Virus record (IMG/VR): IMGVR_UViG_2617270940_000004
Span: 1-19,706 of that record
Strand: one strand, 5' to 3'
DNA length: 19,706 nt
Source of the DNA: a virus
Taxonomy: Duplodnaviria; Heunggongvirae; Uroviricota; Caudoviricetes
Position 1 is the stretch's first letter. Each line of letters starts with the position of its first letter. Below are positions 812 through 14,673 of the stretch, piece after piece. The notes below the pieces were generated by a model, which searched no databases, was not told the origin of the DNA, and saw nothing but the letters and a program-made list of their open reading frames with translations. The position numbers and the translations under genes are program-made.

Positions 812-1690
812 ATGAAATTTACGAAACTGACCGATCATCTGAAACTTGCCGCAGACAAACTCGTGGGGTTTAAACCAGAGCCTTACGAGTTGAATCCCGG
901 TTTCGGCAAGACAACGGAAAGCATCTACCTGATGGTTGACCAGTTCCACACACTGTTTCAGCACCCACGCCGTGCCATTCCAGATCCGGCATTACTGCGT
1001 CTGCGTGCCAAGCTGATCCACGAAGAAGCAGTTACTGAGGGCATCCCGGCAGCCAAAAATGGGGATATGACGGCACTGCTGGACGCGATGGCTGACTTCC
1101 TTTACGTGGGCGTCGGCACAATGGTGGCCATCAAAGGCGGCATCTCGACGGGCATGAGTTACTACACCCAAGAGCAGAGTGTTGATCGCTTCATCCACAC
1201 CATCATGGTTCCGGGCAACACGGTCTTTGACGATATGGCTATCCCGTTTGAAGAAGCAAAAGAAGCTGCATTAATGCTGAATGCGCTGGCTGACAAACTT
1301 GAAGCGAAGCCGATAAGCGATTCCGAATTGGTGCAGGAGCTGCGCCGCGTGATGAACAAAATCTACGTTGCCTGCATGATGACCTACCGTCTGGCTGATT
1401 TTCTCGGAATCGATATTGTTGAGCTGGTGGCAGAAATCCACCGTTCCAACATGACCAAGCTGTGGCCGGCTGACGCCGAAGAGCGTCGTGTGGCGGTAGA
1501 GAATTGCAAATATGACAAGGAAGACCTGGGCTTCCGCCATGCTGAAGGGACTGACATGATGATCGGTTTCAGGGTTTCTGATGGCAAGATCCTCAAATCT
1601 CCCACCTACAGCGATGTGGATCTGACTTGCTTTGTTGAGAAGGCGAAGTCCTCATCTCTTTACGAGATGGTAAAAAATAATTGTAAGTGA
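812..1690 (+). CDS. MazG/HisE-like all-alpha NTP pyrophosphohydrolase (two tandem repeats; possibly dimeric-dUTPase-like)
   Basis: 292 aa; RBS AAGGA 8 nt upstream of ATG. Contains LIHEEAVTEGIPAAKNGDMTALLDAMADFLY (EExxE ... DxxxD pattern typical of MazG/HisE-type pyrophosphohydrolases) and a second similar half (ELRRVMNKIYVACMMTYRLADFLGIDIVELVAEI). Family call from motif recollection only. Confidence 0.5.
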   Translation: MKFTKLTDHLKLAADKLVGFKPEPYELNPGFGKTTESIYLMVDQFHTLFQHPRRAIPDPALLRLRAKLIHEEAVTEGIPAAKNGDMTALLDAMADFLYVGVGTMVAIKGGISTGMSYYTQEQSVDRFIHTIMVPGNTVFDDMAIPFEEAKEAALMLNALADKLEAKPISDSELVQELRRVMNKIYVACMMTYRLADFLGIDIVELVAEIHRSNMTKLWPADAEERRVAVENCKYDKEDLGFRHAEGTDMMIGFRVSDGKILKSPTYSDVDLTCFVEKAKSSSLYEMVKNNCK

Positions 1691-1753
1691 GTACTTATCA
1701 TTATATATTGCCTTGGCGTGTTTTATTGTCCAAGTTCTTAATTGCTCATTGCA

Positions 1754-1783
1754 ATGGTGGCCGAAGAGCCACCATTTTTTTTT
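1754..1783 (+). terminator. Rho-independent terminator
   Basis: Stem ATGGTGGC / GCCACCAT with loop CGAAGA, followed by T9 run. Confidence 0.75.
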
Positions 1784-1833
1784 ACTCCCTTCCTAGCCTT
1801 ACACACTTCTGACAGATAAACTTGTATAAAATA

Positions 1834-1853
1834 ATAGGTATGCACTTACTTAT
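1834..1853. promoter_or_regulatory. Family A palindromic site (putative operator), degenerate
   Basis: ATAGGTATGCACTTACTTAT directly upstream of the ThyA-like gene; outer ATAGGTA...TTAT conserved. Confidence 0.4.
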
Positions 1854-1870
1854 CTTGTGTGAGGTTGATT

Positions 1871-2974
1871 TTGTCTATCCTACTGAATCGAGACTTTACG
1901 AACGGTCAGTTTGCCAGTGGTTCGTATGCCAAAGTGGTTGAAACGGTGCTCAACACTGGCGTTCACGCGGGTGATCGCACCGGAACCGGCACAAAAAGTG
2001 TTTCATATGTCCCTTCCTACTACATGCTGACGGGCGGATCTGTTCCACTTATCTCCGGAAAAGCCGTCAATCTGAAGCCGTTACTGGTTGAGCTGGAGTG
2101 GTATCTCAAAGGAACAGGCAACATCCAGTTCCTGAAAGACAATGGCGTCAAAATCTGGGATGCCTGGGCCGATGAAAATGGCGATTTAGGCCCGGTCTAT
2201 GGCAAGCAATGGCGTCGGTGGGAAGACACTCGCATCGTGAGCCATAGCGAGTATCTGCGCAAAATCGACACGTTCCGTGAGCGCGGGTACAAGGTCGAGG
2301 GGTATCTGGGCGTAAGTGAAGATCGCGTTGTGTTGTCCCGTGAAATTGACCAGCTACAGCGTATCGTTGACACGCTTCGCACCAACCCTACAGATCGTCG
2401 CATCCTGCTGAATGCCTGGAATGTTGGCGAACTGGAAGATATGAAGCTGCCGCCATGCCATTTCGTGTTTTCACTGTGGAGTCGCGAGCTGGACTTTGAG
2501 ACCCGACTGACTATGGCCACCGACATTGGCATACAGCACAACCGCCACGGCCACGAGTCCATGTACACCCAGATGCTGTGTCTTCTGGAAAGAGATGGCG
2601 GCATTACTGAGAACATGCTGGACGAGCTGGGCATCCCGAAACGCATTCTGAACTCATGCCTGGTTCAACGCAGTGTCGATACCTTTGTTGGTATGCCGTT
2701 CAACATCGCCGGTTACGGCATTCTCACCCACTTCCTCGCGAAGATCACCGGCCACATGGCTGGCGCATTCGTGCATTTTGGCTTTGACGTTCATCTCTAC
2801 GACAACCACATGGAAGGCGTTGAGGAACTGATGAAGCGCGAGCCGCCCAAAGAGTCCGACCCGGTTGTCATCTTCCCGCATGAATGGGCCGAACTGGACG
2901 ACTTCAAATGGGAAGGTGTGCAGGTGTGCGGCTACAGCCCTCTTCCGTGGATCAAGGTTCCAGTGGCGGTGTGA
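1871..2974 (+). CDS. thyA: Thymidylate synthase family protein (ThyA homologue with two large insertions and an N-terminal extension)
   Basis: Contains DRTGTGT, IWDAWADENGDLGPVYGKQWRRW, DRRILLNAWNVGELEDMKLPPCHFVF (catalytic Cys in PCH), QRSVDTFVGMPFNIAGY and HLYDNHM, all matching recalled E. coli ThyA blocks. Start uncertain: ORF track gives GTG 1859, but GAGG at 1860-1863 looks like the SD for TTG 1871 (TTG 1865 also possible). Confidence 0.85.
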   Translation: MSILLNRDFTNGQFASGSYAKVVETVLNTGVHAGDRTGTGTKSVSYVPSYYMLTGGSVPLISGKAVNLKPLLVELEWYLKGTGNIQFLKDNGVKIWDAWADENGDLGPVYGKQWRRWEDTRIVSHSEYLRKIDTFRERGYKVEGYLGVSEDRVVLSREIDQLQRIVDTLRTNPTDRRILLNAWNVGELEDMKLPPCHFVFSLWSRELDFETRLTMATDIGIQHNRHGHESMYTQMLCLLERDGGITENMLDELGIPKRILNSCLVQRSVDTFVGMPFNIAGYGILTHFLAKITGHMAGAFVHFGFDVHLYDNHMEGVEELMKREPPKESDPVVIFPHEWAELDDFKWEGVQVCGYSPLPWIKVPVAV

Positions 2975-2975
2975 T

Positions 2976-3389
2976 ATGGCCAGAGGGATGTATGTGTTGT
3001 GTGAAATTGAAGGTGTGCTGGCGAGAGCCAGCCATCGCAAAGCAGTGCCTGATGCGGATGCAGGCGCTCTTATTGCCGGTGATGAACTCATCTTTCCCAC
3101 CAGCCGCATGTTGCGTGGTTTTGCTCGCTCCGGTGCTGAAGTGGTGCTTATCAGTAGTCGTCCGGAAGCGCTCGAAGGCCCAACCAAGCGCTGGCTGAAG
3201 GACTTCGGCATTGATTATGACTGGCTCCACCTGGTTCCGCGCGGTGTCAGTTTTGAAACCCATATCAAGCGCACGCTGGCAGAGCACAAAGGCGACTTAC
3301 TTATCGCCGCACTGGTTCATGATCCGCGTCTGCGTTCTGCGCTGGCAAATTCTCACCAGCGACCAACCATCTATGAGGTAAGCCAATGA
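2976..3389 (+). CDS. HAD-superfamily, NT5C-like 5'(3')-deoxyribonucleotidase-fold protein with non-canonical motif I (ExE instead of DxD)
   Basis: ATG at 2976, 1 nt after the ThyA stop; stop overlaps DHFR start (ATGA). MYVLCEIEGVLA aligns with the HAD/NT5C motif hhhhDxDGVL; later blocks (VVLISSRPEALEGPTKRWLKDFGIDYDWLHLV, LLIAALVHDP) fit HAD motifs II-IV. Weak, motif-level call. Confidence 0.4.
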   Translation: MARGMYVLCEIEGVLARASHRKAVPDADAGALIAGDELIFPTSRMLRGFARSGAEVVLISSRPEALEGPTKRWLKDFGIDYDWLHLVPRGVSFETHIKRTLAEHKGDLLIAALVHDPRLRSALANSHQRPTIYEVSQ

Positions 3390-3862
3390 AGATGATTGCA
3401 GCTGTCGGCCGCAACTATGAAATCGGCATTGGCAACGAACTTCCCTGGCGTTGCCCGACCGATCTGAAACTGTTCAAACAACTCACCAAAAACGCCACTG
3501 TCGTGATGGGACGTAAGACGATGGAAAGTCTTAAACGCCCGCTGCCAGAGAGCCATAACCTCGTTTTGACGCGCTCTCGTGGCTATATCCCCAATGGTTT
3601 CTACCCCGCTGGCATCGATGACGTTTTAAAACTACCAGATCCGGTCTGGGTGATTGGTGGCGGGCAGATTTACTCGCTCTTTATGCCACACGTTGAAGAG
3701 ATCTGGCTGTCGCATATTGGCGTGGATGTGTCGGGCGCGGATGCGTTCTTCCCGGCGCCAATGATGCGTTCTTTAGGGTTCGTACCAGTCGAAACGGCTT
3801 ATACCCAACGTGCAAATGAGGATGAGCCTGGCTTTTTGCAGATCGTATACAGAAGGTCGTAA
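3386..3862 (+). CDS. folA: Dihydrofolate reductase
   Basis: 158 aa; MKMIAAVGRNYEIGIGNELPWRCPTDLKLFKQLTKNATVVMGRKTMESLKRPLP parallels the DHFR N-terminus (IAA..IG..MPW..P.DL..FK..T....V.MGR.T.ES...PLP); VIGGGQIY matches the glycine-rich NADPH loop. GAGG RBS 7 nt upstream. Confidence 0.85.
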   Translation: MKMIAAVGRNYEIGIGNELPWRCPTDLKLFKQLTKNATVVMGRKTMESLKRPLPESHNLVLTRSRGYIPNGFYPAGIDDVLKLPDPVWVIGGGQIYSLFMPHVEEIWLSHIGVDVSGADAFFPAPMMRSLGFVPVETAYTQRANEDEPGFLQIVYRRS

Positions 3863-4506
3863 TGGATTACCGGATTGGAATCACTGGCGCACAGGGCAGT
3901 GGGAAAACAACCCTGGCAAGGTACATCGATGCGCACTATGGCATTCCGTATGTGGATGCTGGTGTTGGCAAGCTGATGAGCAGTCTGGGGGTGAAGGTTG
4001 GCGAGCGTTTGCCCCTTTACGAGCGTCTTCAGGTTCAGATGGAGATTGCCAGACACATCGAGATGATCACCCGCGGCGTTGAAGGTTTTGTCATCGACCG
4101 CACGCCAGCCGATGTCATGGCTTATACGCTTGACCTGGTCGGCCAGACCAACGAAGACCGCTGCATCGAGCTGGCTCTCGACATTGAGCAGTTTTGCCAC
4201 AAAGCGACCATTTCCAACTTCAATGCTATAGCGGGTCTTCGCCCGGGCGTTGAGCTTTCCAGCAAAGATCTCGCGCGTCCCCAGCGAGGATCGCTTGACC
4301 GTCTCTATGTTGCTCGCATCGATGCACTTATGTGTGGCGAGCTGACGAAAATTAGCGCCCTTCCCCATACCGGCGATTTGCAGGTTTTCATTATCTCTGA
4401 AAAGTGCCGCACGGTTGAGGCGCGAGCCAGATCGGTATTGCGTGTGCTGGAAAGAGCCACTGAAAACATCGAGAGCCGTATAACAGGACGAGTGACCTTC
4501 CACTGA
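3862..4506 (+). CDS. P-loop nucleotide kinase, T4 gp1-like deoxynucleoside monophosphate kinase candidate
   Basis: Walker A IGITGAQGSGKTTLA at N-terminus; FVIDRTPADVMAY resembles the PDTRQDHE region of T4 gp1 as recalled. Start overlaps DHFR stop (TAATG). Confidence 0.55.
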   Translation: MDYRIGITGAQGSGKTTLARYIDAHYGIPYVDAGVGKLMSSLGVKVGERLPLYERLQVQMEIARHIEMITRGVEGFVIDRTPADVMAYTLDLVGQTNEDRCIELALDIEQFCHKATISNFNAIAGLRPGVELSSKDLARPQRGSLDRLYVARIDALMCGELTKISALPHTGDLQVFIISEKCRTVEARARSVLRVLERATENIESRITGRVTFH

Positions 4507-4998: not shown

Positions 4999-5553
4999 AT
5001 GACCACGATTGTCGGTGGCGTCGATATTGAGTCCACGGGGCTGGACTTCACATCCGGCCACAAAATTATCGAAATCGCGATATCTCGTTATGAACTGGAA
5101 ACCCAGAAGCGCATTGACAGCCTTGAGATGCGCTTCAACCCGCGTCGTAGCATCGATCTGAAGGCGCAGGCTGTACATGGTATCTCTCTGGAAGAACTGG
5201 CTGCTGAACCGCTGTTGGCTGATCACGCAGGTAAGATTGCTGCATATATGGGGGCATGTAGCGCGTTAGTCGCCCATAACGGGGAGGCTTTTGACCTTCC
5301 GTTCATTCGCCACGAGTTCGGAAGCTATGGAGTGAAATTGCCAGAAATCCCTCTGGTTGACACTCTATTTTCCCTGTGGGCTACCGAGGATGGGAAGCGC
5401 CCACGCCTGGAAGAGCTGGCATTCTCACTTGGGTTCACTTACGACCGTGAGAAAGCCCACAGTGCTCTCTACGATACTGATCTGATGATGCAGTGTTTCT
5501 TCAAAGCCCGAGAGAAATACGGCTTCTTCAAACTCCCATTCGAAAGCGCCTGA
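4999..5553 (+). CDS. DnaQ-like (DEDDh) 3'-5' exonuclease
   Basis: Exo I DIESTGL, Exo II ALVAHNGEAFDLPFI, Exo III HSALYDTD; AAGGAG RBS 5 nt upstream of ATG. Confidence 0.7.
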   Translation: MTTIVGGVDIESTGLDFTSGHKIIEIAISRYELETQKRIDSLEMRFNPRRSIDLKAQAVHGISLEELAAEPLLADHAGKIAAYMGACSALVAHNGEAFDLPFIRHEFGSYGVKLPEIPLVDTLFSLWATEDGKRPRLEELAFSLGFTYDREKAHSALYDTDLMMQCFFKAREKYGFFKLPFESA

Positions 5554-5568
5554 TGGCGCTTTTTCTTT
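5543..5568 (+). terminator. Rho-independent terminator candidate overlapping the exonuclease stop codon
   Basis: Stem AAAGCGCC / GGCGCTTT with loop TGAT, followed by TTTTTCTTT. Confidence 0.5.
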
Positions 5569-5681
5569 GCCTCCAGTTCCTTTAACTGCCTGTAGTTATG
5601 ACTTTTCTGCCTGATAGGTTTTGCCAGAATAAGCTCAACCAAAACGCGGAAATGCACCAACGAAAACATAAGGAGTTAAAA

Positions 5682-6554
5682 ATGAGCGCAGTTTCAAACA
5701 TTGTTAAAAACGATGACCTGGATGAATTGACTGCAATGCTGCAATCTCTCGAAGAACCGGTTCTGAAAGCTGCGAAAATGAGCGGTATCGACGAGATCGA
5801 CGATCTTCTCTCTGGTCTGGATGATGCAATCGCAAAACCAGTCGAGGCGGTGGCAGATGAAGTCATGAATGTCAGCTCTACCGGCGATCTGAGTGGCGTT
5901 CTGGAAGAGCTTGAGATTGCACACGAATCGGTGAAGGTCGAGGAGCCAGAGCGTGGCCCTATTGCGGAGATAGTGGACGAGCCAACACCTGAACTTGATG
6001 CTCGAAGCGCTGAGACCACCGATATAGCTCCAACGCTTTTACCTTCAGTGGAGTCTGGGCCTAAACCTGAAGAAGAGCAGCCAAAACACCAGAAGGCACA
6101 ATCAAAGCGTGCGCCGACCAAACCTCGCTTCACGCTGGAGGGTAAGGATGAATCGTTCTATGTGACAGCCGGTCTGGATAGTGAGCGCTTTACTGCCGCA
6201 TTCGAAGGCGCGCCGATCAAAGCGAAAGACAAAATCTTAAACCTCCTGAACTGGTTTAGTGGTGGCCCGGAAATCAGCGTCTACACGGTAATCGCAATGC
6301 GCCATATTCTTGATACGAACACGGCGACCAGCAATAGCATTAAACTGGCGCTAATGAGCTACCCGGAGAAACCATATCCACTTAACACGGCTTCGACTCA
6401 GGCTGGCCAGATGATGGCTGTGTTTCCGGCCACAGGCATTGCCACCAGAGAAGGTGGAAATCTAACGCTTAATAAAGAGTCGCCGATCGTCAAAAAATTC
6501 ATAGCGGAGTATTCCATTGAACAATGTTCCTCTGCACGATCTAAAGCACCCTGA
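5682..6554 (+). CDS. Hypothetical protein with acidic, low-complexity N-terminal half and a globular C-terminal domain
   Basis: ATG at 5682 with AAGGAG 7 nt upstream (ORF track start 5598 is an upstream TTG). N-terminal ~150 aa rich in D/E/P/S/A; C-terminal part ordinary composition. Confidence 0.55.
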   Translation: MSAVSNIVKNDDLDELTAMLQSLEEPVLKAAKMSGIDEIDDLLSGLDDAIAKPVEAVADEVMNVSSTGDLSGVLEELEIAHESVKVEEPERGPIAEIVDEPTPELDARSAETTDIAPTLLPSVESGPKPEEEQPKHQKAQSKRAPTKPRFTLEGKDESFYVTAGLDSERFTAAFEGAPIKAKDKILNLLNWFSGGPEISVYTVIAMRHILDTNTATSNSIKLALMSYPEKPYPLNTASTQAGQMMAVFPATGIATREGGNLTLNKESPIVKKFIAEYSIEQCSSARSKAP

Positions 6555-6601
6555 GAGCTTTAGGACGCTGGGTAAGCTCATTGCATACCCAGCATCGATA
6601 A

Positions 6602-6653
6602 AACGCGCCAGAGAGCTTCCCGTTTGCGAATCTGGCGCGTTCTTCTTTGTTTG
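6602..6653 (+). terminator. Rho-independent terminator candidate (preceded by a second hairpin at 6568-6594)
   Basis: 11 bp perfect stem AACGCGCCAGA / TCTGGCGCGTT with 18 nt loop, followed by CTTCTTTGTTTG. Confidence 0.55.
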
Positions 6654-6677
6654 CTATCCGTTGGATTAAATGAAAAA

Positions 6678-6697
6678 ATAGGTAAGTATTTACCTAT
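6678..6697. promoter_or_regulatory. Family A palindromic site (putative operator)
   Basis: ATAGGTAAGTATTTACCTAT, near-perfect 20 bp palindrome 12 nt upstream of the methyltransferase start. Confidence 0.55.
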
Positions 6698-6709
6698 CAG
6701 AGTAAGGTA

Positions 6710-7303
6710 ATGATCGCAGCCGAAAAAATCAAAAAGCGAGAGCGTGATGCCTCTCTTCGCGACCTTTGGCGCACACCGCAGTGGTTGTTTGTCGCCATCC
6801 AACGTTACATAGGCGTAAAGTTCGATGTGGACGTCGCCTGCAACAAAGATAATGCTCTCCTGACGAACTTTATCGGTGTTGAGCGTGATGCGCTCAAGTG
6901 CAGTTGGGGAGAACCTGGCACTGTGGCGTTCCTTAACCCGCCCTACTCCAAAATCACCCCCTGGATAGATGCAGCCATTCGCGAGCAGGCGCGTGGAGTG
7001 ACGACGGTCATGCTGATACCACAATCCCTCGATACGCAGTGGTACGAGCGTGCGGCTGAATGCGCCAACGAAACCGTCATCTTGTCTGGCGGCCGCGTGG
7101 CGTTCGTTGAGCCGGATGTTGAACTTGGGCTGGTGGAGGTGAACATCAACCCTGGTGGCAGCATGTTGCTTATCTTCCGTGGCTACTGTCAGGAAGCTGG
7201 GCACACCATCAGCAAGATACCGCTGGCGGTGATGAAAAAGCTGGGTGGTTATGACCCTGCCAATGTTGTCAGGAAGAAGAGACCACGTAAAAAGGCAGCG
7301 TAA
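6710..7303 (+). CDS. Orphan DNA N6-adenine methyltransferase (phage Dam-like family, NPPY motif)
   Basis: 197 aa; DLWRTPQWLF ... FDVDVACN ... GTVAFLNPPYS follows the layout of phage-type N6-adenine MTases; no restriction endonuclease gene adjacent. Confidence 0.75.
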   Translation: MIAAEKIKKRERDASLRDLWRTPQWLFVAIQRYIGVKFDVDVACNKDNALLTNFIGVERDALKCSWGEPGTVAFLNPPYSKITPWIDAAIREQARGVTTVMLIPQSLDTQWYERAAECANETVILSGGRVAFVEPDVELGLVEVNINPGGSMLLIFRGYCQEAGHTISKIPLAVMKKLGGYDPANVVRKKRPRKKAA

Positions 7304-7505
7304 ACACCAGTCTGGGAGTTAGTTTGAGAACCTGCTTCCGTATATATAAATAACTAAGTACTAATTATTAATATATACAGACGCAGGCTTTTTAAGACGT
7401 GATTTCCAAACAACTCCCAGACCGTTTTACACCTCCAGAACCCACTGGAGCCCCTCTCCAGACGCTCTAGAATCGATTTTATGAACCACAGTAAGGAAAA
7501 CTATC

Positions 7506-7736
7506 ATGGTATACCCGACGAACGTCGTAGCGCTCGTTGAGAGCGATTTTCTGGCCACAGTGCGCGACATGATGAAAGATCGCGATAAGGCTTTCAGTCT
7601 CTACGAATGGTCGCTCAAATGTCTTCATTCAGGCGAGCACAAAGAGCTGGTGGAGCAGCTGTTAGGGGAACTCATCAATGAGGTGTTTGCCCTGAACGTC
7701 CAGCTTCATGGGCGAGAAATTAATCAATCAATATAA
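7506..7736 (+). CDS. Hypothetical small protein (76 aa)
   Basis: ATG with AAGGA 8 nt upstream; stop codon overlaps the family A palindrome at 7736-7755. Confidence 0.5.
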   Translation: MVYPTNVVALVESDFLATVRDMMKDRDKAFSLYEWSLKCLHSGEHKELVEQLLGELINEVFALNVQLHGREINQSI

Positions 7737-7755
7737 TAGGTAAGTACTTACCATT
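7736..7755. promoter_or_regulatory. Family A palindromic site (putative operator)
   Basis: ATAGGTAAGTACTTACCATT; core GGTAAGTACTTACC is a perfect 14 bp palindrome. Confidence 0.55.
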
Positions 7756-8330
7756 CAAAACGCCACTAACCAGTGATACAATCTATCCGCTTCCGGATAC
7801 TTTCGGCAGCTCGACCTGATGGGTGGGGGATAGCGTCACTGGCGTCAGGTTTAAAAAAGCTCACTACCAGCGTAGAACCGGCACCGTTTAGGGGTTGGGG
7901 AAGGGGGAACCAAAGTGGGCAGAGAGAAGGGTCACTTTATGATTGTCGAGTCTGGAGTGTTTCGAGAGGTTGAATCCAGTACTCCCCTTCATAAAGTGTG
8001 GGAAGATCTCGGTTCTGGGGTGCTGTCATCCATAACTTCCCAAGCCTAAGCTGGCAGTAGACTTAGGTCATAACTTTTCAGGTTATGAAACGACCAGGTT
8101 GGTGAGGAAATTTTGTACTCACCTCCCTGGGAGAGTATTACCTGAAAAGACAACCTCTCACTTCGTTCGAGGTGAACTTCACTCACTTCGTTCGTTCAGT
8201 TCAGGTTTTATTAAAACCTGTTCTGGGAAGTAATTTTTCTTTTCTAAAAAATTTTTAATATTTACACGCACGCGTGCGCACACGCGCGAGGGGAAAAAAA
8301 ATCGTCGCGGCGCGCGATTCTGGAGCCAAA

Positions 8331-8939
8331 ATGACGACCAAGACCCCAGCCCGGCAACATACTGGCTGCCGCACGAAGTCCAAAGCCAGATACCAAACCC
8401 ACCAGCAATCCCGTACCAACTTCAAAACCCCCGTAGTCGAGTTCAATCCCCAGCTCAAAACCGTAAAAGTATTCAGTGATGGCTCCTGCCTCAAAAATCC
8501 GGGCGGGCCGGGCGGTTACGGCATCGTTCTCCAGTATCGAGGCGAAGAGCGCGAGCTTTCTGAGGGCTTCCACAGCACGACCAACAATCGGATGGAGATG
8601 ATGGGCGCCCTGATTGCGCTGGAGCGTCTGAAGTACCCCTGCAACGTGATCCTGCATTCCGACAGCCAGTATCTTAAAAACGGCATGACGCTCTGGATGA
8701 AAGGCTGGAAGCGTAACGGATGGATCACGTCTGAGAAGAAGCCAGTCAAAAACGTGGATCTCTGGAAACGTCTCGACGCGGCCGCCAGTCGTCATAATGT
8801 CCGCTGGAAGTGGGTTAAAGGCCATGCAGGTCATCGCGAGAACGAAATGTGTGACCGTCTGGCGAAGATCGCCGCCTATTCCGCAGCTGATATGCCTCAC
8901 AAGCATGACATTGGGTTTTTGTCACAAAAAGATAAGTAA
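8331..8939 (+). CDS. rnhA: Ribonuclease HI homologue with ~45 aa basic N-terminal extension
   Basis: [75 protein letters not shown] and [20 protein letters not shown] match recalled E. coli RNase HI blocks. Start set at ATG 8331 (GGAG 5 nt upstream); ORF is open from 8274. Confidence 0.8.
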
Positions 8940-8951
8940 GTATTTACCTAC
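8932..8951. promoter_or_regulatory. Family A palindromic site (putative operator)
   Basis: ATAAGTAAGTATTTACCTAC overlapping the RNase H stop codon (TAA 8937-8939). Confidence 0.5.
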
Positions 8952-9031
8952 TATAATAAATCAGGTATCTTATAAATCGTCAGGATGACGAAGTACCGGT
9001 TAGGTACGGTTCCAGGATGGAACGCCAAAAG

Positions 9032-9052
9032 GCGGCTGGCTTGGCCAGCCGC
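9032..9052 (+). terminator. Hairpin, weak terminator candidate
   Basis: Stem GCGGCTGGC / GCCAGCCGC with loop TTG, followed by AACTCTTTCT (poor U-tract). Confidence 0.3.
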
Positions 9053-9081
9053 AACTCTTTCTGACACTGAATGGAATCCAC

Positions 9082-9582
9082 ATGGCCCGTCAAACGTCTT
9101 TCACTTCTTTCAATAAACGTCCCCGTTCAATTCGCCTGGTGCTGACCGAGCTGTTTAGTGGTCGTGTTTCCGCACGCCTTACGGAACTGGAAGAACGAGT
9201 GTTTGAACTGGAGAAGCGCATTAATGCGCAAGCTACCGCCATAGCTAATCTGGGCACGACAGTAGGCATGGAGAAGGTGCGTAATAGCGTCGCTTCTCGT
9301 GTGTTGCGTGAAACCCGGACACACAAGGACAGTTCTCATGGAAAATTTTCAACGAAATCGACTGAAGCCAATGGCCTACGGAGTGATTTTGGCAACTCTG
9401 GCAGCGATTACCGTACCAGCCGGTCAGAGCCTTTTGATGCCGGGCACAGCTACTTCCACTGCCACCACAGCCTTGCAGATGACACCCCTGCCCGAACGAC
9501 CTCCTGTCTCTCTGGATGGGATGCTGATGGACACGATTCCAGCTCGACCTGCGACTCCGGATCTTCCTTCTGCTGTGACTGA
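9082..9582 (+). CDS. Hypothetical protein with predicted coiled-coil segment; 3' half doubtful
   Basis: 166 aa ORF; residues ~30-75 (RLTELEERVFELEKRINAQATAIANLG) look coiled-coil; C-terminal third is S/D/G/C/H-rich and overlaps an alternative-frame ORF (9338-9595), so the 3' extent is uncertain. Confidence 0.35.
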   Translation: MARQTSFTSFNKRPRSIRLVLTELFSGRVSARLTELEERVFELEKRINAQATAIANLGTTVGMEKVRNSVASRVLRETRTHKDSSHGKFSTKSTEANGLRSDFGNSGSDYRTSRSEPFDAGHSYFHCHHSLADDTPARTTSCLSGWDADGHDSSSTCDSGSSFCCD

Positions 9583-9595
9583 GGCTATTGTATGA
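9338..9595 (+). CDS. Hypothetical small membrane/secreted protein (alternative frame to 9082-9582)
   Basis: ATG 9338 with AAGGA 9 nt upstream; hydrophobic segment MAYGVILATLAAITVPA; stop overlaps start of next ORF (ATGA at 9592-9595). Confidence 0.4.
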   Translation: MENFQRNRLKPMAYGVILATLAAITVPAGQSLLMPGTATSTATTALQMTPLPERPPVSLDGMLMDTIPARPATPDLPSAVTEAIV

Positions 9596-9780
9596 AATGG
9601 AACTTCCAGAAATTCACCTTGATGATTGTTGGCTTTACCGTTTTTTTGTTTAGCGGCTGGATCATGAATCTGGTGAAACTTGTGAACGATGGTGATCTCC
9701 AGTCTCATGCCGGAGTGACACTTGCGCGTGTCGTGGGCATTTTCGTTGTTCCGGTGGGCGGCATCCTCGGGTTCTTTTGA
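9592..9780 (+). CDS. Hypothetical small membrane protein (62 aa, two predicted TM helices)
   Basis: GAGG 7 nt upstream; FTLMIVGFTVFLFSGWIM and VVGIFVVPVGGILGFF hydrophobic stretches. Confidence 0.45.
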   Translation: MKWNFQKFTLMIVGFTVFLFSGWIMNLVKLVNDGDLQSHAGVTLARVVGIFVVPVGGILGFF

Positions 9781-9802
9781 TGCTGAATGATTTTCTGCAT
9801 TG

Positions 9803-9820
9803 TTAAAACAAATTGTTTAG
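9803..9820. promoter_or_regulatory. Family B palindromic site (putative operator)
   Basis: TTAAAACAAATTGTTTAG; half-sites AAACAA / TTGTTT around a central base. Confidence 0.5.
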
Positions 9821-9846
9821 ACAAATGATTAATGAGAGTTAACAAC

Positions 9847-9870
9847 AAGGGCCGCTGACGGCCCTTTTGT
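9847..9870 (+). terminator. Rho-independent terminator candidate
   Basis: Stem AAGGGCCG / CGGCCCTT with loop CTGA, followed by TTGT. Confidence 0.55.
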
Positions 9871-9886
9871 ACTGAATGGAAAACGT

Positions 9887-10702
9887 ATGTTTGAGGTAAC
9901 TGCACACGCTCCCAGCACCACAGGCTTACATGCCAGGCCATCGATGACCAGTCAGGAGATCGCCGAAATGGTCGGCAGTCGCCATGACAGCGTAAAACGC
10001 ACCATTGAAAGACTCGCTAAATCCGGCGTTATTACTTTTCCACCAATGGTGGAAAAGCCCACTGCCGGGCGTCCGGCTACCTTTTACTTGTTCGAAGCCG
10101 AACAGGGTAAGCGCGACAGTATCGTTGTCGTGGCACAGCTTTCTCCTGAATTTACCGCACGTCTTGTTGATCGGTGGAGAGAGCTTGAATCCATGTTTGC
10201 CTACCACGGAACGCCTGCTATTCCGCGTACCTATAAAGAAGCGCTGGTTCATTTGCTGCGCCAGGTTGAGGAAAACGAGCGTCTGGAGAGTGAGAACGAG
10301 GCGTTGGGCGTAGCACTATCCAACGCAAAGCCAAAAGCCATTCTCATGGACACCATTTGCGGCACTGCTGATGAACTTTATGGGTTGAATGAAGCCGGTC
10401 GCATTCTCGGCACGTCCGGGGCTGTTCTGGGTGCGCTGATGGACTCGCTGGGTGATGTGTACGTTAAGCGCAAATACACCACTGTTAACCGCCAGTTCCT
10501 CAAGATCTTCATTGACCGCGGATATGGCAAAAACGTTGTCATCGGAAACGGTCGCAACCAGGCCAAGTTCACCTTTAAAGGGCTTTGCTTTGCAGCTGTG
10601 AAACTAATTGCAGCCGGGTTGATTGCCTCCAGCGCCATTGAATATGAGCCGTGTCGTGAGCATGTCGAACGTGCAATGAAGGAATCCAAACGTCTTCATT
10701 GA
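9887..10702 (+). CDS. Phage antirepressor-type regulator (Rha-like N-terminal domain + ANT/KilAC-like C-terminal domain)
   Basis: N-terminal MTSQEIAEMVGSRHDSVKRTIERL resembles the Rha family; C-terminal ILGTSGAVLGALMDSLGDVYVKRKYTTVNRQFLKIFIDRGYGKNVV resembles the ANT domain. Start uncertain (9887 or 9944). Confidence 0.55.
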   Translation: MFEVTAHAPSTTGLHARPSMTSQEIAEMVGSRHDSVKRTIERLAKSGVITFPPMVEKPTAGRPATFYLFEAEQGKRDSIVVVAQLSPEFTARLVDRWRELESMFAYHGTPAIPRTYKEALVHLLRQVEENERLESENEALGVALSNAKPKAILMDTICGTADELYGLNEAGRILGTSGAVLGALMDSLGDVYVKRKYTTVNRQFLKIFIDRGYGKNVVIGNGRNQAKFTFKGLCFAAVKLIAAGLIASSAIEYEPCREHVERAMKESKRLH

Positions 10703-10773
10703 CCGTCAGTATGGACGTCCACCTTTATGTAGCGTTTGGCCACCTTTTCAGTCACGTCACAATAACACAATTG

Positions 10774-10791
10774 AGAAAACAACTTGTTTAA
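10774..10791. promoter_or_regulatory. Family B palindromic site with conserved upstream ATAACA box (putative promoter/operator)
   Basis: AGAAAACAACTTGTTTAA preceded by CAATAACACAATTGAG; lies ~20 nt upstream of the 10811 start codon. Confidence 0.55.
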
Positions 10792-10810
10792 AAACATAAG
10801 GAAAAAACAC

Positions 10811-11383
10811 ATGTGCGACAAATGCAAAAAAACTAATGCCAAAGTTGAAAGCGTGATTAAAAAAGTTGGTGCGGCCGAACTGGTTGAGATCATGGGTCTT
10901 GTGGCTGGTCACGAAGACGACGCCTCCCCTATTGACCGCCTTTTCAGCGTTCTCAAGTTCTCAAGCATGATTGATGATCCGATTGAAATTGTGATGCTGG
11001 CGCGTCATTTCGGCGAAGCGTATCTGGAAGAGAAAGAACGCGCCGACAAACTTCAGGCAACTCTGGAAATGGTAAGCAAGCCGAAGTGCTCACCGGATTC
11101 AGTCAAGGCAGATGAAACCAACGCCAGCAAAGATCGTGAAATCGCCGGGTTGAAGTTTTCTCTGGCGATGTTGCTGGCCGCCTTCAAACTGATGTCTTCC
11201 CAGGCTGGATTCAAAATGCCTGAGCTGAACAGCGACGATCCGATGGCCGTTCGCCAGCTGCTGGGGGCAATGGCCGACCAGCTTGACGACACCAAGAGCC
11301 GTCTTGAAGACATGATGCGCGAGCTGACCCATCGCTACGACCTGAACAAACAGCCGCAAAAGATGCAGCCTTTACATCATTAA
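10811..11383 (+). CDS. Hypothetical protein
   Basis: ATG 10811 with AAGGA 8 nt upstream (ORF track TTG start 10784 lies inside the operator motif); 190 aa, N-terminal CDKCKK. Confidence 0.5.
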   Translation: MCDKCKKTNAKVESVIKKVGAAELVEIMGLVAGHEDDASPIDRLFSVLKFSSMIDDPIEIVMLARHFGEAYLEEKERADKLQATLEMVSKPKCSPDSVKADETNASKDREIAGLKFSLAMLLAAFKLMSSQAGFKMPELNSDDPMAVRQLLGAMADQLDDTKSRLEDMMRELTHRYDLNKQPQKMQPLHH

Positions 11384-11388
11384 TATAT

Positions 11389-11405
11389 AGGGGGCAAAGC
11401 CCCCT
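11389..11405. terminator. Bidirectional hairpin between convergent genes
   Basis: AGGGGGC AAA GCCCCCT perfect stem-loop between the stop of 10811-11383 (+) and the stop of 11409-11828 (-). Confidence 0.5.
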
Positions 11406-11408
11406 ACT

Positions 11409-11828
11409 CTACTTTGCGGCGTCTAACAATAAGCCGCAATTTTCGCTCATGTATGCCGCAGTTGCCGGATTGCCTCTGTCATTATTCGAATTGTTCATTT
11501 CAGGGTGAGCGTCCCAGGCCACTGATTCCTGAGATGATAGATAGACGGCAAAGTCGACGATTTCATCATCTCCGGTTTTAACGTTGCCAAGCAATTCATT
11601 TGCCTTTCTCCAGTGCTTCAGCGCGAGAATTCTGAACTGTTTTGCATTTTCAGCAGGCACTGCACTGGATTTGTCTGTGTAGATATTCGATATGTCGGCA
11701 TAAAGAGCGCATTTAACATAGCTGGTTGCCCTGCCGGTCTCTTTAAAACGTTGCTCTGTGTTGTTGGCGTAGACATTCACAGCAAAAGCGCTGGCAATTC
11801 CCAGCAATATAATTTTCTTCATCATCAT
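11409..11828 (-). CDS. Hypothetical secreted protein with signal peptide
   Basis: N-terminus MMMKKIILLGIASAFAVNVYA is a signal-peptide-like sequence; the only substantial minus-strand gene outside the IS elements; AT-rich; no clear SD. Confidence 0.5.
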   Translation of the reverse strand: MMMKKIILLGIASAFAVNVYANNTEQRFKETGRATSYVKCALYADISNIYTDKSSAVPAENAKQFRILALKHWRKANELLGNVKTGDDEIVDFAVYLSSQESVAWDAHPEMNNSNNDRGNPATAAYMSENCGLLLDAAK

Positions 11829-11971
11829 TACTCAATAAGGAGGCGACAAATATCTTACGTGTAGTTGTCAGTTGAGTATTAAGCAAACTCAATAAACTTA
11901 TAAGTATCTCCCTGTGCAGCCTGTGAATCCTTATTTATTACCTACTCAATTTTGAAATAATAACACCAACA

Positions 11972-11989
11972 AGAAAACAATTTGTTTAA
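11972..11989. promoter_or_regulatory. Family B palindromic site with conserved upstream ATAACA box
   Basis: AGAAAACAATTTGTTTAA preceded by TAATAACACCAACAAG; ~10 nt upstream of the 12000 start codon. Confidence 0.55.
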
Positions 11990-11999
11990 TGGTGCAGTC

Positions 12000-13685
12000 A
12001 TGAATACAGCCCTTTCCATCATTGACGCTATCACTCCAAACACTGATATCGACTACCGGCAGGAAATGAACGTTATCCACGAAATTGTGGCCGAGTGCGA
12101 GAAAGAGATCGCATTCATGCATCAGGTTCACGACTTCGTTTATGGCGACGAACGCCACAGCATGATTAACCGTCTACTGCGGCTCAATCACCGGCCGGAC
12201 GACGAGCGCACACGCTTTAACAGAACCTGGCTGGACAAAGTCGACCTGGAATGGGTGAAACAAAATATCTGGGCCGAGTACTGGAAGAAGGTCACGGATA
12301 TGACCAACGTTCTGTTGATCATGCCAGCATCCCGCCGCGACGAGTGGCGTGAACAGTTTATCGAGGGCAAGCAGGAAACGATCAAGACTGACAGAACTGG
12401 CTATCAAATGAAGGTTAAAGAGTTCGTTGGTGTACCTGAGTTCAAAGCAGAAACGGTCATACCAACGATGCTTAATTTGCTGAATGACAGGCACAAATAT
12501 CTCTCTGAGCGCGTGTATGGCTTGTTTAAGGCGTTGAGTCCTGCTCACAAGACCAATAAGACGAACGGCTTCAGCGAGCGTCTGATCATCGCCGACTGCA
12601 TTTCCGATTTCTGGCGGGACAGCGTCAGCGTTAACTACCGGAAAGAGGATTACATAGACGACCTGCGCGTCATGTTGCATTTCTTTGCACACAAAGAATT
12701 TATCACCATCAATCGCACGGCCGAGATGCTGTCAGCTGCGTATCGAGCAAATGACTGCCAGACCGGCGACTGGATGAATGTCGACGGAAACCTGATGCGT
12801 GTGAAGATGTTTAAGAACGGCAACGTTCACTTTGAAATACATCCTGACGTAGCCTGGAAGCTGAATGAGGTGCTGGCTTACAGTATGCCCGCTGCAATCC
12901 CGGCTCCATGTCGTACTGCGCCCAAAACACGGGCACCAAAACAGTTCGGGTTAATCCAGAAGACGATCTCCGAGCCGGTGCGTACTGCGCTTCGCGACGG
13001 GCGATCTGGCAATGACAAACGCGTATGGTACTTCTCTGATTCCGGTCTCCAGAAGTCACAGGTGGAAGAGCTGGAGCGTACACTGAGCTTTATTGGCGGC
13101 GTGCAGGAGAACAAGCACTGGCAGTTCCCGTATGAGATCGGCCATACGCTCAATACGATTGTGGCCACCGGCGTAATACCGGATACAAAATCACACCAGT
13201 TCTACCCTACCCCGCGTTTGATAGCGGAGTACGTTGCCAGAGCCATTGAGCTGAAACCAGGTGAGAAGCTGCTGGAGCCTGAAGCCGGGCGTGGAGATCT
13301 GCTGGCCTGCATCGACGCCAACCCGGAAGACGTCACCTGCATAGAAGTCGCGCCTCTCTTTGCTGATATCCTGCTTGGCAAGGGGTACACAAATACGGTC
13401 TGCTGCGACTTCATGAAGTGGTCTGAGAACAACGCAGGCTATCAGTTCGACAAAATCGTCATGAACCCACCCTACTCTCTCGGTCGTCACAGAGAGCACA
13501 CATTGGCCGCGCTGGGGCATCTGAAAGTTGGTGGGCGTCTGGTAGCAGTGCTGCCGGGCGACGCGCCAATTCTAAACTGGATGACGCTGGATAATTACGT
13601 TTATGCCAAAGGGAAGTCGTTTACTAACGTGTTTGAAGACACCGGGATTACTGTCAGCGTATACGTTTTTAAACGCGTTAAATGA
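12000..13685 (+). CDS. Large orphan N6-adenine DNA methyltransferase (C-terminal SAM-dependent MTase domain, N-terminal ~400 aa domain of unknown function)
   Basis: C-terminal FYPTPRLIAEYVA ... LLEPEAGRGDLL (motif I) ... DKIVMNPPYSLG (motif IV NPPY). No adjacent restriction gene. Start set at ATG 12000. Confidence 0.7.
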   Translation: MNTALSIIDAITPNTDIDYRQEMNVIHEIVAECEKEIAFMHQVHDFVYGDERHSMINRLLRLNHRPDDERTRFNRTWLDKVDLEWVKQNIWAEYWKKVTDMTNVLLIMPASRRDEWREQFIEGKQETIKTDRTGYQMKVKEFVGVPEFKAETVIPTMLNLLNDRHKYLSERVYGLFKALSPAHKTNKTNGFSERLIIADCISDFWRDSVSVNYRKEDYIDDLRVMLHFFAHKEFITINRTAEMLSAAYRANDCQTGDWMNVDGNLMRVKMFKNGNVHFEIHPDVAWKLNEVLAYSMPAAIPAPCRTAPKTRAPKQFGLIQKTISEPVRTALRDGRSGNDKRVWYFSDSGLQKSQVEELERTLSFIGGVQENKHWQFPYEIGHTLNTIVATGVIPDTKSHQFYPTPRLIAEYVARAIELKPGEKLLEPEAGRGDLLACIDANPEDVTCIEVAPLFADILLGKGYTNTVCCDFMKWSENNAGYQFDKIVMNPPYSLGRHREHTLAALGHLKVGGRLVAVLPGDAPILNWMTLDNYVYAKGKSFTNVFEDTGITVSVYVFKRVK

Positions 13686-13704
13686 GAGGTAAATACTTAC
13701 CTAA
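13685..13704. promoter_or_regulatory. Family A palindromic site (putative operator)
   Basis: AGAGGTAAATACTTACCTAA, starting at the last base of the methyltransferase stop codon. Confidence 0.5.
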
Positions 13705-13747
13705 TCTATGTAAGAATATAGTGACTATATGATAAGAGAAAAAACAC

Positions 13748-14437
13748 ATGAGCAATCTTCCGTTAGAGCGTTTTAACGTCAAAAGCCATGCCGACTTTCC
13801 TTTCAAATTTGTAATGAGAGGTTATGCAGAGGAAGCAGTAGGCCAGATCATCATTGACAAAGGCATTGTTAAGTTTGAAGGGGATTATGATGAATCCGCG
13901 AAAACATTCATAGACTTCGTTGCTAAACGTTGGAGCGAGCAATGGAGAGACCTGGAAAAACGTGCTCGTGAATTTGATGTATTCATGTCTGCAATTGATA
14001 CAGAAAAAACGGCTCTGGCTGCGGGTACTCCGTTAGATTTGGAGTCTCTGTTTAAAGGTGAAATGGCCTCTGCGATGTTCGCAACCATGTTTGCCGGTGA
14101 GTTTGTTCGTAGCGGGGCCAGAAACTACCTGGAGCTGGGGTACGACGTTCCTGAAATGGGTGAGTTTACCGTCACCATTCAACGCAAAGAAGGTAAGACT
14201 CCTGGCGAACGTATCGCTGAACTTGAGGCCGTTGTGGATCAGCGTAACGGCGAGTGCGTCCGTTTGATTAATGAACGTGATGCGCTGCGCGAAGAGCAGC
14301 TAAACAAAGGCTCGAACACACGCGCGGCCGCAGACATCTACTTCCAGTTGGTTGAGGAATGCCAGATCCCGCCAGGTGGCTCTTTGGTCGAGTTCGTTCG
14401 CGAATTGCAGGAGAAAGCAGAGAGGTGCGCGGCATGA
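13748..14437 (+). CDS. Hypothetical protein (229 aa)
   Basis: Long ORF with ordinary composition; stop overlaps next start (ATGA at 14434-14437). Confidence 0.5.
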   Translation: MSNLPLERFNVKSHADFPFKFVMRGYAEEAVGQIIIDKGIVKFEGDYDESAKTFIDFVAKRWSEQWRDLEKRAREFDVFMSAIDTEKTALAAGTPLDLESLFKGEMASAMFATMFAGEFVRSGARNYLELGYDVPEMGEFTVTIQRKEGKTPGERIAELEAVVDQRNGECVRLINERDALREEQLNKGSNTRAAADIYFQLVEECQIPPGGSLVEFVRELQEKAERCAA

Positions 14438-14673
14438 ATGATCTGCTTGTCGAGCGAGTCTCCGCTTTTGTTAAGTCCCCGCTGAATAATCCCCTCACCC
14501 GCTGTGAGCAGATGGAGCTGGCAAGGTGGTTTCTGCGTATCCATGAGCAGATGGAAGTTTTTAAACAGTTGCCGGATCTGCCCATTACAGACGGCCAAAT
14601 TCAGTGTGCCACTTCAGTACGGTCGACGATGACAACGACGCAAACCTGCTTTTCGTCAAATCCGAAATCATAA
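14434..14673 (+). CDS. Hypothetical small protein, possibly frameshifted at its 3' end
   Basis: ATG 14434 with GAGAGG upstream, translationally coupled to the previous gene; C-terminal ~25 aa look non-protein-like while another frame looks protein-like (see findings). Confidence 0.4.
   Translation: MNDLLVERVSAFVKSPLNNPLTRCEQMELARWFLRIHEQMEVFKQLPDLPITDGQIQCATSVRSTMTTTQTCFSSNPKS

Follow-up and report, generated by a model that had tools for sequence, protein, structure and literature searches.

The window analyzed here is a stretch of viral DNA of 19,706 nucleotides (Caudoviricetes; IMG/VR record IMGVR_UViG_2617270940_000004), and it carries two solitary N6-adenine methyltransferases, one of 197 amino acids (positions 6710–7303, + strand) and one of 561 amino acids (12000–13685, + strand). 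On the evidence of its sequence the window is an SSU5-type phage-plasmid, because it has high identity to both the plasmid pLAO18 and the Salmonella phage SSU5. Our preferred reading, to which we give a probability of roughly 60%, is that the two enzymes protect the phage-plasmid against host restriction by self-methylation. An earlier note, made from the letters alone, had placed at these positions two orphan adenine methyltransferases of a mobile element, a small Dam-like one with an NPPY motif and a large one with EPEAGRG and NPPY motifs, neither having an adjacent endonuclease. Both open reading frames and all of these motifs are found as described, and family membership, motifs and predicted fold agree in making both proteins N6-adenine-type methyltransferases. 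The mobile element can be specified through its plasmid and phage matches and its synteny, and the absence of a partner nuclease is borne out below.

In the proposed mechanism the two enzymes, which we infer to be catalytically active on DNA, would methylate adenines in the DNA of the element itself. Progeny or newly established copies would thereby be pre-protected against the restriction systems of the next host entered by infection. For the small enzyme this is how a phage Dam-family methyltransferase is usually understood. In the large enzyme the catalytic domain would be unable to hold its substrate specifically by itself, and the N-terminal 395 amino acids, consisting of a DUF4942 core and a small basic domain, most likely bind and select the nucleic-acid substrate. 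The logic would be the same as that of the orphan methyltransferases of phages and plasmid leading regions, and by this analogy an anti-restriction role agrees with published examples (PMC11541004, PMC7736820). Orphan methyltransferases are among the most prominent functions of leading regions, and the protection that they give to phages and to pESBL is cited there (PMC11541004). The enzyme of pESBL, M.EcoGIX, methylates single strands as they enter and gives protection from restriction (PMC7736820).

The small methyltransferase is an ordinary member of the Dam family of phage T1 and Stx phages. It scores 127.5 bits against the Pfam family Dam (PF05869; E = 5e-37, cut-off 28.1) and 112.8 bits against the NCBIfam equivalog TIGR01712, 'phage N-6-adenine-methyltransferase' (cut-off 97.05), and therefore lies above both curated thresholds. 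It also matches phrog_111 (5e-63) and the PADLOC 'orphan methyltransferase' model (9e-14). In the translation catalytic motif IV, NPPY, occupies amino acids 76–79 (6935–6946, + strand) within a single small domain, with the profile spanning amino acids 11–174 of the 197 and no separate recognition domain. In its size (~170–200 amino acids in the T1/Stx Dam family), its NPPY motif, its solitary and phage-borne state and its lack of a separate recognition domain the protein is like other members. It differs from them in its low identity, ~38% to the Dam genes of Stx-converting phages and ~30% to those of ~50-kb siphophages that we take to be T1-like, and in its basic C-terminal tail, RKKRPRKKAA. 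Identity to its SSU5 counterpart is 99.5%, and RefSeq contains the identical protein under the name 'phage N-6-adenine-methyltransferase'.

The Stx-phage enzyme M.EcoVT2Dam presumably belongs to the same gene family as the small methyltransferase. M.EcoVT2Dam targets GATC (PMC6602927). Judged by its family, the small enzyme most likely has a short target motif, for which GATC is the leading candidate, although the specificity is not safely transferable because the identity to the Stx-phage Dam genes is only ~38%. A GATC at 6712–6715 overlaps the start codon of the gene itself (ATGATC) and is kept in SSU5. In phage Cyrano the corresponding sequence is ATGATT, and the overlap is therefore probably coincidental.

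The large methyltransferase joins a YdiA/DUF4942 region at its N terminus to a C-terminal N6-adenine methyltransferase domain with the motif order of the gamma class. A mechanical reading frame would begin at a TTG at 11982; the ATG at 12000 is the RefSeq start and is conserved in SSU5, Cyrano and pYUXYEH3934-1. The compact catalytic domain comprises amino acids 396–561 (13185–13682, + strand). Within it lie motif X (FYPTP, 13200–13214, + strand), motif I (EPEAGRG, amino acids 426–432, 13275–13295, + strand), motif II (E449), motif III (DF, 470–471) and motif IV (NPPY, amino acids 489–492, 13464–13475, + strand). The order X, I, II, III, IV, the (D/N)PP(Y/F) motif and the class I Rossmann fold are those of the gamma class, and all the catalytic motifs are invariant in 30 homologues with identities down to 32%. 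The protein matches phrog_6263, 'DNA methyltransferase', over its full length (3e-296) and also matches PADLOC methyltransferase models. Its AlphaFold model has a mean predicted local distance difference test score (pLDDT) of 83. There are 327 homologues, and among the matches listed nearly all are ~520–580 amino acids long. The N-terminal region as query gave 617 representative clusters, nearly all ~500–580 amino acids, and the predicted domain architecture is fixed across these clusters.

The closest solved relatives by fold and profile include M.TaqI, M.BseCI, CamA and the Type I subunit HsdM. In these enzymes the recognition domain follows the catalytic domain or sits on a separate S subunit. 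The large methyltransferase, in contrast, stops at the end of its catalytic motifs, ~10 residues past the last strand of the catalytic domain and with no C-terminal target-recognition domain, and its additional region of 395 amino acids precedes the catalytic domain. No S-subunit gene was found nearby with Pfam, PHROGs or PADLOC. Because the methyltransferase domain ends after its last motif and no C-terminal recognition domain follows, target recognition is the more plausible role for the N-terminal region.

That region had been described earlier as a domain of ~400 amino acids of unknown function. There are indeed ~395 amino acids in which no methyltransferase motifs were found, but the domain already has a name as the Pfam family DUF4942, or YdiA. 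PF13708 covers amino acids 146–301 with an E value of 1e-20 (74.5 bits against a gathering score of 25). Profile comparison widens the core module to amino acids 84–303 (12249–12908, + strand), with an hhalign probability of 98.7% to a stand-alone protein of 282 amino acids from an IncK2/Z plasmid. Between this core and the catalytic domain there is a proline-rich linker with a small basic alpha/beta domain (amino acids 304–395, isoelectric point 9.3; 12909–13184, + strand), which is possibly winged-helix-like. A public record gives the name YdiA to a truncated, 96%-identical S. Typhi protein of 461 amino acids.

If either enzyme belonged to a restriction-modification system of Type II it should be adjoined by its cognate endonuclease, and neither is. 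Searches of the flanking open reading frames of the window with Pfam, PADLOC, PHROGs and the sequences of the PDB found no endonuclease family. The complete annotation of SSU5 includes recombination exonucleases and no restriction endonuclease, and none recurs at ~40 homologues of the large gene. A 'restriction endonuclease' does lie ~0.9 kb upstream of the large gene in pYUXYEH3934-1. This is an Mrr_cat (Type IV-like) protein and not a cognate partner; because it stands beside IS421 in a slot of variable content, filled by Rha here and by Ant in SSU5, we regard it as cargo.

The wider neighbourhoods of the large gene were sampled at 80 loci from GTDB genomes, and ~40 of these were kept, chosen as diverse and matching over nearly the full length; they span the Gamma-, Beta- and Alphaproteobacteria. 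An all-against-all BLAST comparison of 247 open reading frames, three on each side at ~42 loci, gave a single cluster of three and no recurrent neighbour family. When the 101 open reading frames within two genes of a homologue were scanned with Pfam, four high-GC loci having been excluded, the commonest families were other DNA methyltransferases. These accounted for 8 of the 101 (five C5, two N6_N4 and one Eco57I-type) and were followed by early and replication genes of prophages (antiterminator Q, NinB, DnaB, SSB and RdgC). The 25 families seen most often included no restriction endonuclease. One homologue, in a phage, immediately precedes a Mom gene, and another shares its contig with a GpA-type terminase ATPase domain. 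In IncHI2 plasmids a full-length homologue of 30% identity lies two genes away from a Dam-family methyltransferase. The contexts with Mom, with methyltransferases and with leading-region genes fit an anti-restriction role.

We also noted that in the IncHI2 plasmid pSCE516-1 (6300–10584 of locus L009), and in a metagenomic plasmid-like contig (5655–9638 of locus L005), the DUF4942-methyltransferase homologue is separated by one gene from a divergently oriented methyltransferase of the Dam/D12 family. This mirrors the pairing of Dam with the DUF4942-methyltransferase in SSU5-type elements.

Several observations weigh against protection of DNA as the role of these enzymes. E. coli already possesses Dam, and GATC is neither depleted nor enriched in the window (80 observed against 89.6 expected, a ratio of 0.89). 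An enzyme specific for GATC would thus contribute little to protection in this host. For the large enzyme the top structural match of the catalytic domain is METTL5, which methylates adenine in ribosomal RNA to give m6A, and the fold alone is thus no proof of a DNA substrate. Methylation of RNA (m6A in ribosomal or transfer RNA) or of protein in place of DNA is nevertheless extremely improbable. The similarity to the folds of METTL5 and Erm/KsgA is all that speaks for it, whereas the best profile matches are DNA adenine methyltransferases, the PADLOC matches are DNA methyltransferase models, and the neighbours of homologues are DNA methyltransferases, Mom and replication genes. Many polar residues of the N-terminal region are invariant, and this would also fit the active site of an enzyme as against a pure binding domain. 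About 20 polar or charged positions are invariant there, E170, T185, N186, D221, H277 and D283 among them; with R171 and N289 these belong to the conserved polar residues of the DUF4942 core, and several of the invariant positions are kept in stand-alone DUF4942 proteins. A bifunctional protein, with a nuclease in the manner of Types IIG and IIL or another DNA-modifying step as its second catalytic function, could account for these residues. No PD-(D/E)xK or other nuclease domain was found fused N-terminally to the gamma methyltransferase, and we consider this alternative very improbable. DUF4942 also occurs without a methyltransferase, as stand-alone YdiA, and it should therefore have some function of its own beyond target recognition. 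A search of the literature found no functional study of DUF4942, of the methyltransferases of SSU5 and pHCM2, or of the ydiA of leading regions.

Proteins of the YdiA/DUF4942 family (PF13708) are found in plasmid leading regions and in islands of the CP4-57 and SRL types, and they share their core with amino acids 84–303 of the large methyltransferase. Supplementary Table 1 of Samuel et al. (2024) lists two families, mostly named YdiA, as 'Uncharacterized; DUF4942; Methyltransferase' (PMC11541004). In size they count among the top 100 of the families enriched in leading regions, with ranks of 24 and 76 (PMC11541004). Family 24 has 2,171 members at a median position of 1 from the origin of transfer (oriT) and in an orientation expressible from the transferred strand, while family 76 has 551 members (PMC11541004). 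In the IncK2/Z plasmid the stand-alone gene has the mobA/relaxase (oriT) region as its neighbour and points in the same direction as ardA, psiA and psiB. Neither this leading-region example nor the portion aligned with the large methyltransferase contains a methyltransferase domain, while the large methyltransferase is a fusion carried by a phage-plasmid and is not beside oriT.

These relationships allow a speculative extension, which we think rather unlikely. DUF4942/YdiA may be an autonomous establishment or anti-defence module that, when fused to a methyltransferase lacking a target-recognition domain, directs methylation to entering or replicating DNA and not to a motif. If so, many conjugative plasmids would have the stand-alone form as the gene that enters first. 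The fusion, seen here, in IncHI2 plasmids and in many prophages, would give promiscuous or replication-coupled protection. The SSU5 phage-plasmid would then reuse the toolkit of conjugative leading regions, the neighbouring genes for DUF5983 and an annotated DUF1380 included.

The functional precedent for such protection is provided by M.EcoGIX and M.BceJIII, solitary adenine methyltransferases borne on mobile genetic elements in anti-defence neighbourhoods and with demonstrated anti-restriction activity (PMC7736820). Plasmid enzymes of this type are specific for single strands, and their promiscuous methylation (SAY) is asymmetric and incomplete. By analogy the large enzyme could be a promiscuous adenine methylase of low specificity whose substrate is DNA in single-stranded form or under replication. 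The DUF4942 region would then read no sequence, and would tie the enzyme either to a replication protein of the host or to DNA that is entering or replicating. This reading is distinctly unlikely. M.EcoGIX and M.BceJIII are beta-class DPPY enzymes with no DUF4942 and with no homology to the large methyltransferase in motif order or architecture, so that they are functional analogues only, and SSU5 enters its host as double-stranded phage DNA and not as a transferred single strand. Homology to M.EcoGIX was accordingly rejected, since the large methyltransferase has the gamma order with NPPY and M.EcoGIX is of the beta class with DPPY (PMC7736820). The non-specific methyltransferases of the Hia5 type are Dam/D12-like DPPY enzymes and lie outside both families considered here.

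Another comparison can be drawn with the antirestriction proteins of the polyvalent or DarB-like kind, which share a methyltransferase domain matching that of the large methyltransferase. Amino acids 397–520 match internal domains of PHROG families with 1,259–3,925 profile positions, and the catalytic domain also matches phage genes annotated as structural, as PLxRFG or as 'DarB-like antirestriction'. These proteins are giant and multi-domain, some being annotated as structural, whereas the large methyltransferase has 561 amino acids in two modules with no helicase or polyvalent domains.

The palindromic repeats around the two genes bear on whether the methyltransferases act instead in the biology of the element itself. 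Family A, AGGTAAnnnnTTACCT, occurs at six sites in the window against 0.4 expected (560–575, 1836–1851, 6680–6695, 7738–7753, 8934–8949 and 13687–13702), all at gene junctions, just past a stop codon, just ahead of a start codon, or both. Family B, AAACAAnTTGTTT, occurs at eight sites against 0.09 expected (9806–9818, 10777–10789, 11975–11987, 15701–15713, 16017–16029, 16394–16406, 16445–16457 and 18009–18021). These lie 7–92 nt 5' of a start codon where a downstream gene can be identified; two sites follow gene ends, and two copies flank the minus-strand ydfZ gene. The earlier note had seen a family A site before the small gene, a family B site before the large one and a family A site at the stop of the latter, and each is present as described.

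The first of these, AGGTAAGTATTTACCT (6680–6695), lies 15 nt upstream of the ATG of the small gene. SSU5 and Cyrano keep its arms, with variation in the 4-nt spacer; across family A the arms are kept, with a varying spacer, in an 82%-identical relative. The second, AAACAATTTGTTT (11975–11987), lies 13 nt upstream of the ATG of the large gene and overlaps a weak sigma-70-like -10 hexamer within a promoter-like match at 11952–11981. It is conserved in SSU5 and pYUXYEH3934-1 and degenerate in Cyrano. The third, AGGTAAATACTTACCT (13687–13702), follows directly on the stop codon of the large gene, 46 nt before the next gene (13748), and is conserved in SSU5 and Cyrano. The SSU5 genome contains 8 family A sites with at most one mismatch, at gene junctions genome-wide that include the terminase/portal, capsid and lysis regions. 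Its 20 family B sites are in the non-structural part, ~10–100 nt upstream of start codons. Formation of RNA hairpins was considered and rejected: those of family A would be weak (-1.8 to -7.3 kcal/mol) with non-compensatory deviations, and family B has no predicted structure. The palindromes look like candidate DNA-level sites for dimeric DNA-binding proteins, which would put the two methyltransferases in different regulons, and those of family B look like putative operators or promoter-associated sites of a genome-wide regulon.

A palindrome of one of these genome-wide families ahead of each gene suggests programmed expression, and adenine methylation might then time the replication, packaging or gene expression of the element. 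Dam-dependent pac cleavage and Dam-regulated promoters are known for phage P1 and host Dam. Both genes lie in a block devoted to replication and nucleotide metabolism, containing thymidylate synthase, dihydrofolate reductase, exonuclease and RNase H, and a Dam-family enzyme in a Dam+ host would make more sense as a supplement to the Dam dosage when replication is rapid. Against this, the relatives of the large gene are found in variable accessory contexts, with Mom, other methyltransferases or leading-region genes, and are not linked in any conserved way to genes for packaging or replication. We therefore consider it unlikely that the enzymes serve the element itself in this way, and prefer protection by self-methylation.

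The window matched circular plasmids of ~100–115 kb from E. coli, E. fergusonii and Enterobacter by megablast, with the E. coli plasmid pLAO18 (NZ_OP242248) giving the top match of 98.8% identity over 91% of the window. Salmonella phage SSU5 is 93.7% identical to the region 5500–14500, with 91% of that region covered. The gene order is pyrophosphohydrolase, thymidylate synthase, dihydrofolate reductase, AAA ATPase, 3'-5' exonuclease, small methyltransferase, RNase H, a variable slot, large methyltransferase, LprI and ydfZ. All the backbone genes are on the + strand except for ydfZ and one small insert, and both methyltransferase genes belong to a long co-directional run of genes with early, DNA-metabolism or accessory roles. 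The annotated synteny is compatible with the backbone of an SSU5/pHCM2-type phage-plasmid.

The presence of two orphan methyltransferases on such an element is correct, already known and ordinary. Identical proteins are in RefSeq (WP_032187605.1 for the large enzyme, labelled 'DUF4942 domain-containing protein' or 'class I SAM-dependent methyltransferase'), the SSU5 annotation labels both genes as DNA methyltransferases, and the large one has a full-length PHROG family. It matters to the biology of phages, plasmids and phage-plasmids that solitary methyltransferases help them past restriction barriers. The large gene is plasmid-borne in 242 of 5,426 complete E. coli genomes, and SSU5-type phage-plasmids are common in Enterobacteriaceae. 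Phage-plasmids, a group to which the SSU5 type belongs, are reported frequently to carry antibiotic-resistance genes (PMC9600943). The residual interest lies in the YdiA/DUF4942 module; its natural fusion to a catalytic domain provides an experimental handle on its function, and thus a testable hypothesis.

Among the other features of the window, the variable cargo slot (9780–10784) contains the gene for a Rha-family regulator (9887–10702) and is flanked by conserved genes. Elsewhere it is filled by the Ant anti-repressor (SSU5), by TciA/TciB-like genes (phage Cyrano) or by IS421 with the Mrr_cat nuclease (pYUXYEH3934-1). Just 5' of the large gene an open reading frame of 139 amino acids on the - strand (11409–11828), with a clear signal peptide, MMMKKIILLGIASAFAVNVYA, and a match to phrog_7437, encodes a small predicted secreted protein. 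It is inserted amid conserved genes, is not at the corresponding position in SSU5 or pYUXYEH3934-1, and looks like a moron.

Two small genes at 16464–17023 belong to families characteristic of the leading regions of plasmids and of CP4-57-type islands. One encodes a DUF5983 protein (16703–17023; Pfam match 1e-21). The other is labelled DUF1380 in its RefSeq relatives, an assignment that Pfam did not reproduce at E ≤ 0.01. Taken with the DUF4942 fusion, the DUF1380-annotated and DUF5983 genes suggest an accessory set of leading-region character in a phage-plasmid. Finally, the similarity to pLAO18 stops at 18387, near the start of an IS3-family transposase (HTH_Tnp_1 followed by rve; 18433–19706) that lies outside the backbone. 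More than 5,000 plasmid records match the window, most of them probably because of this transposase.

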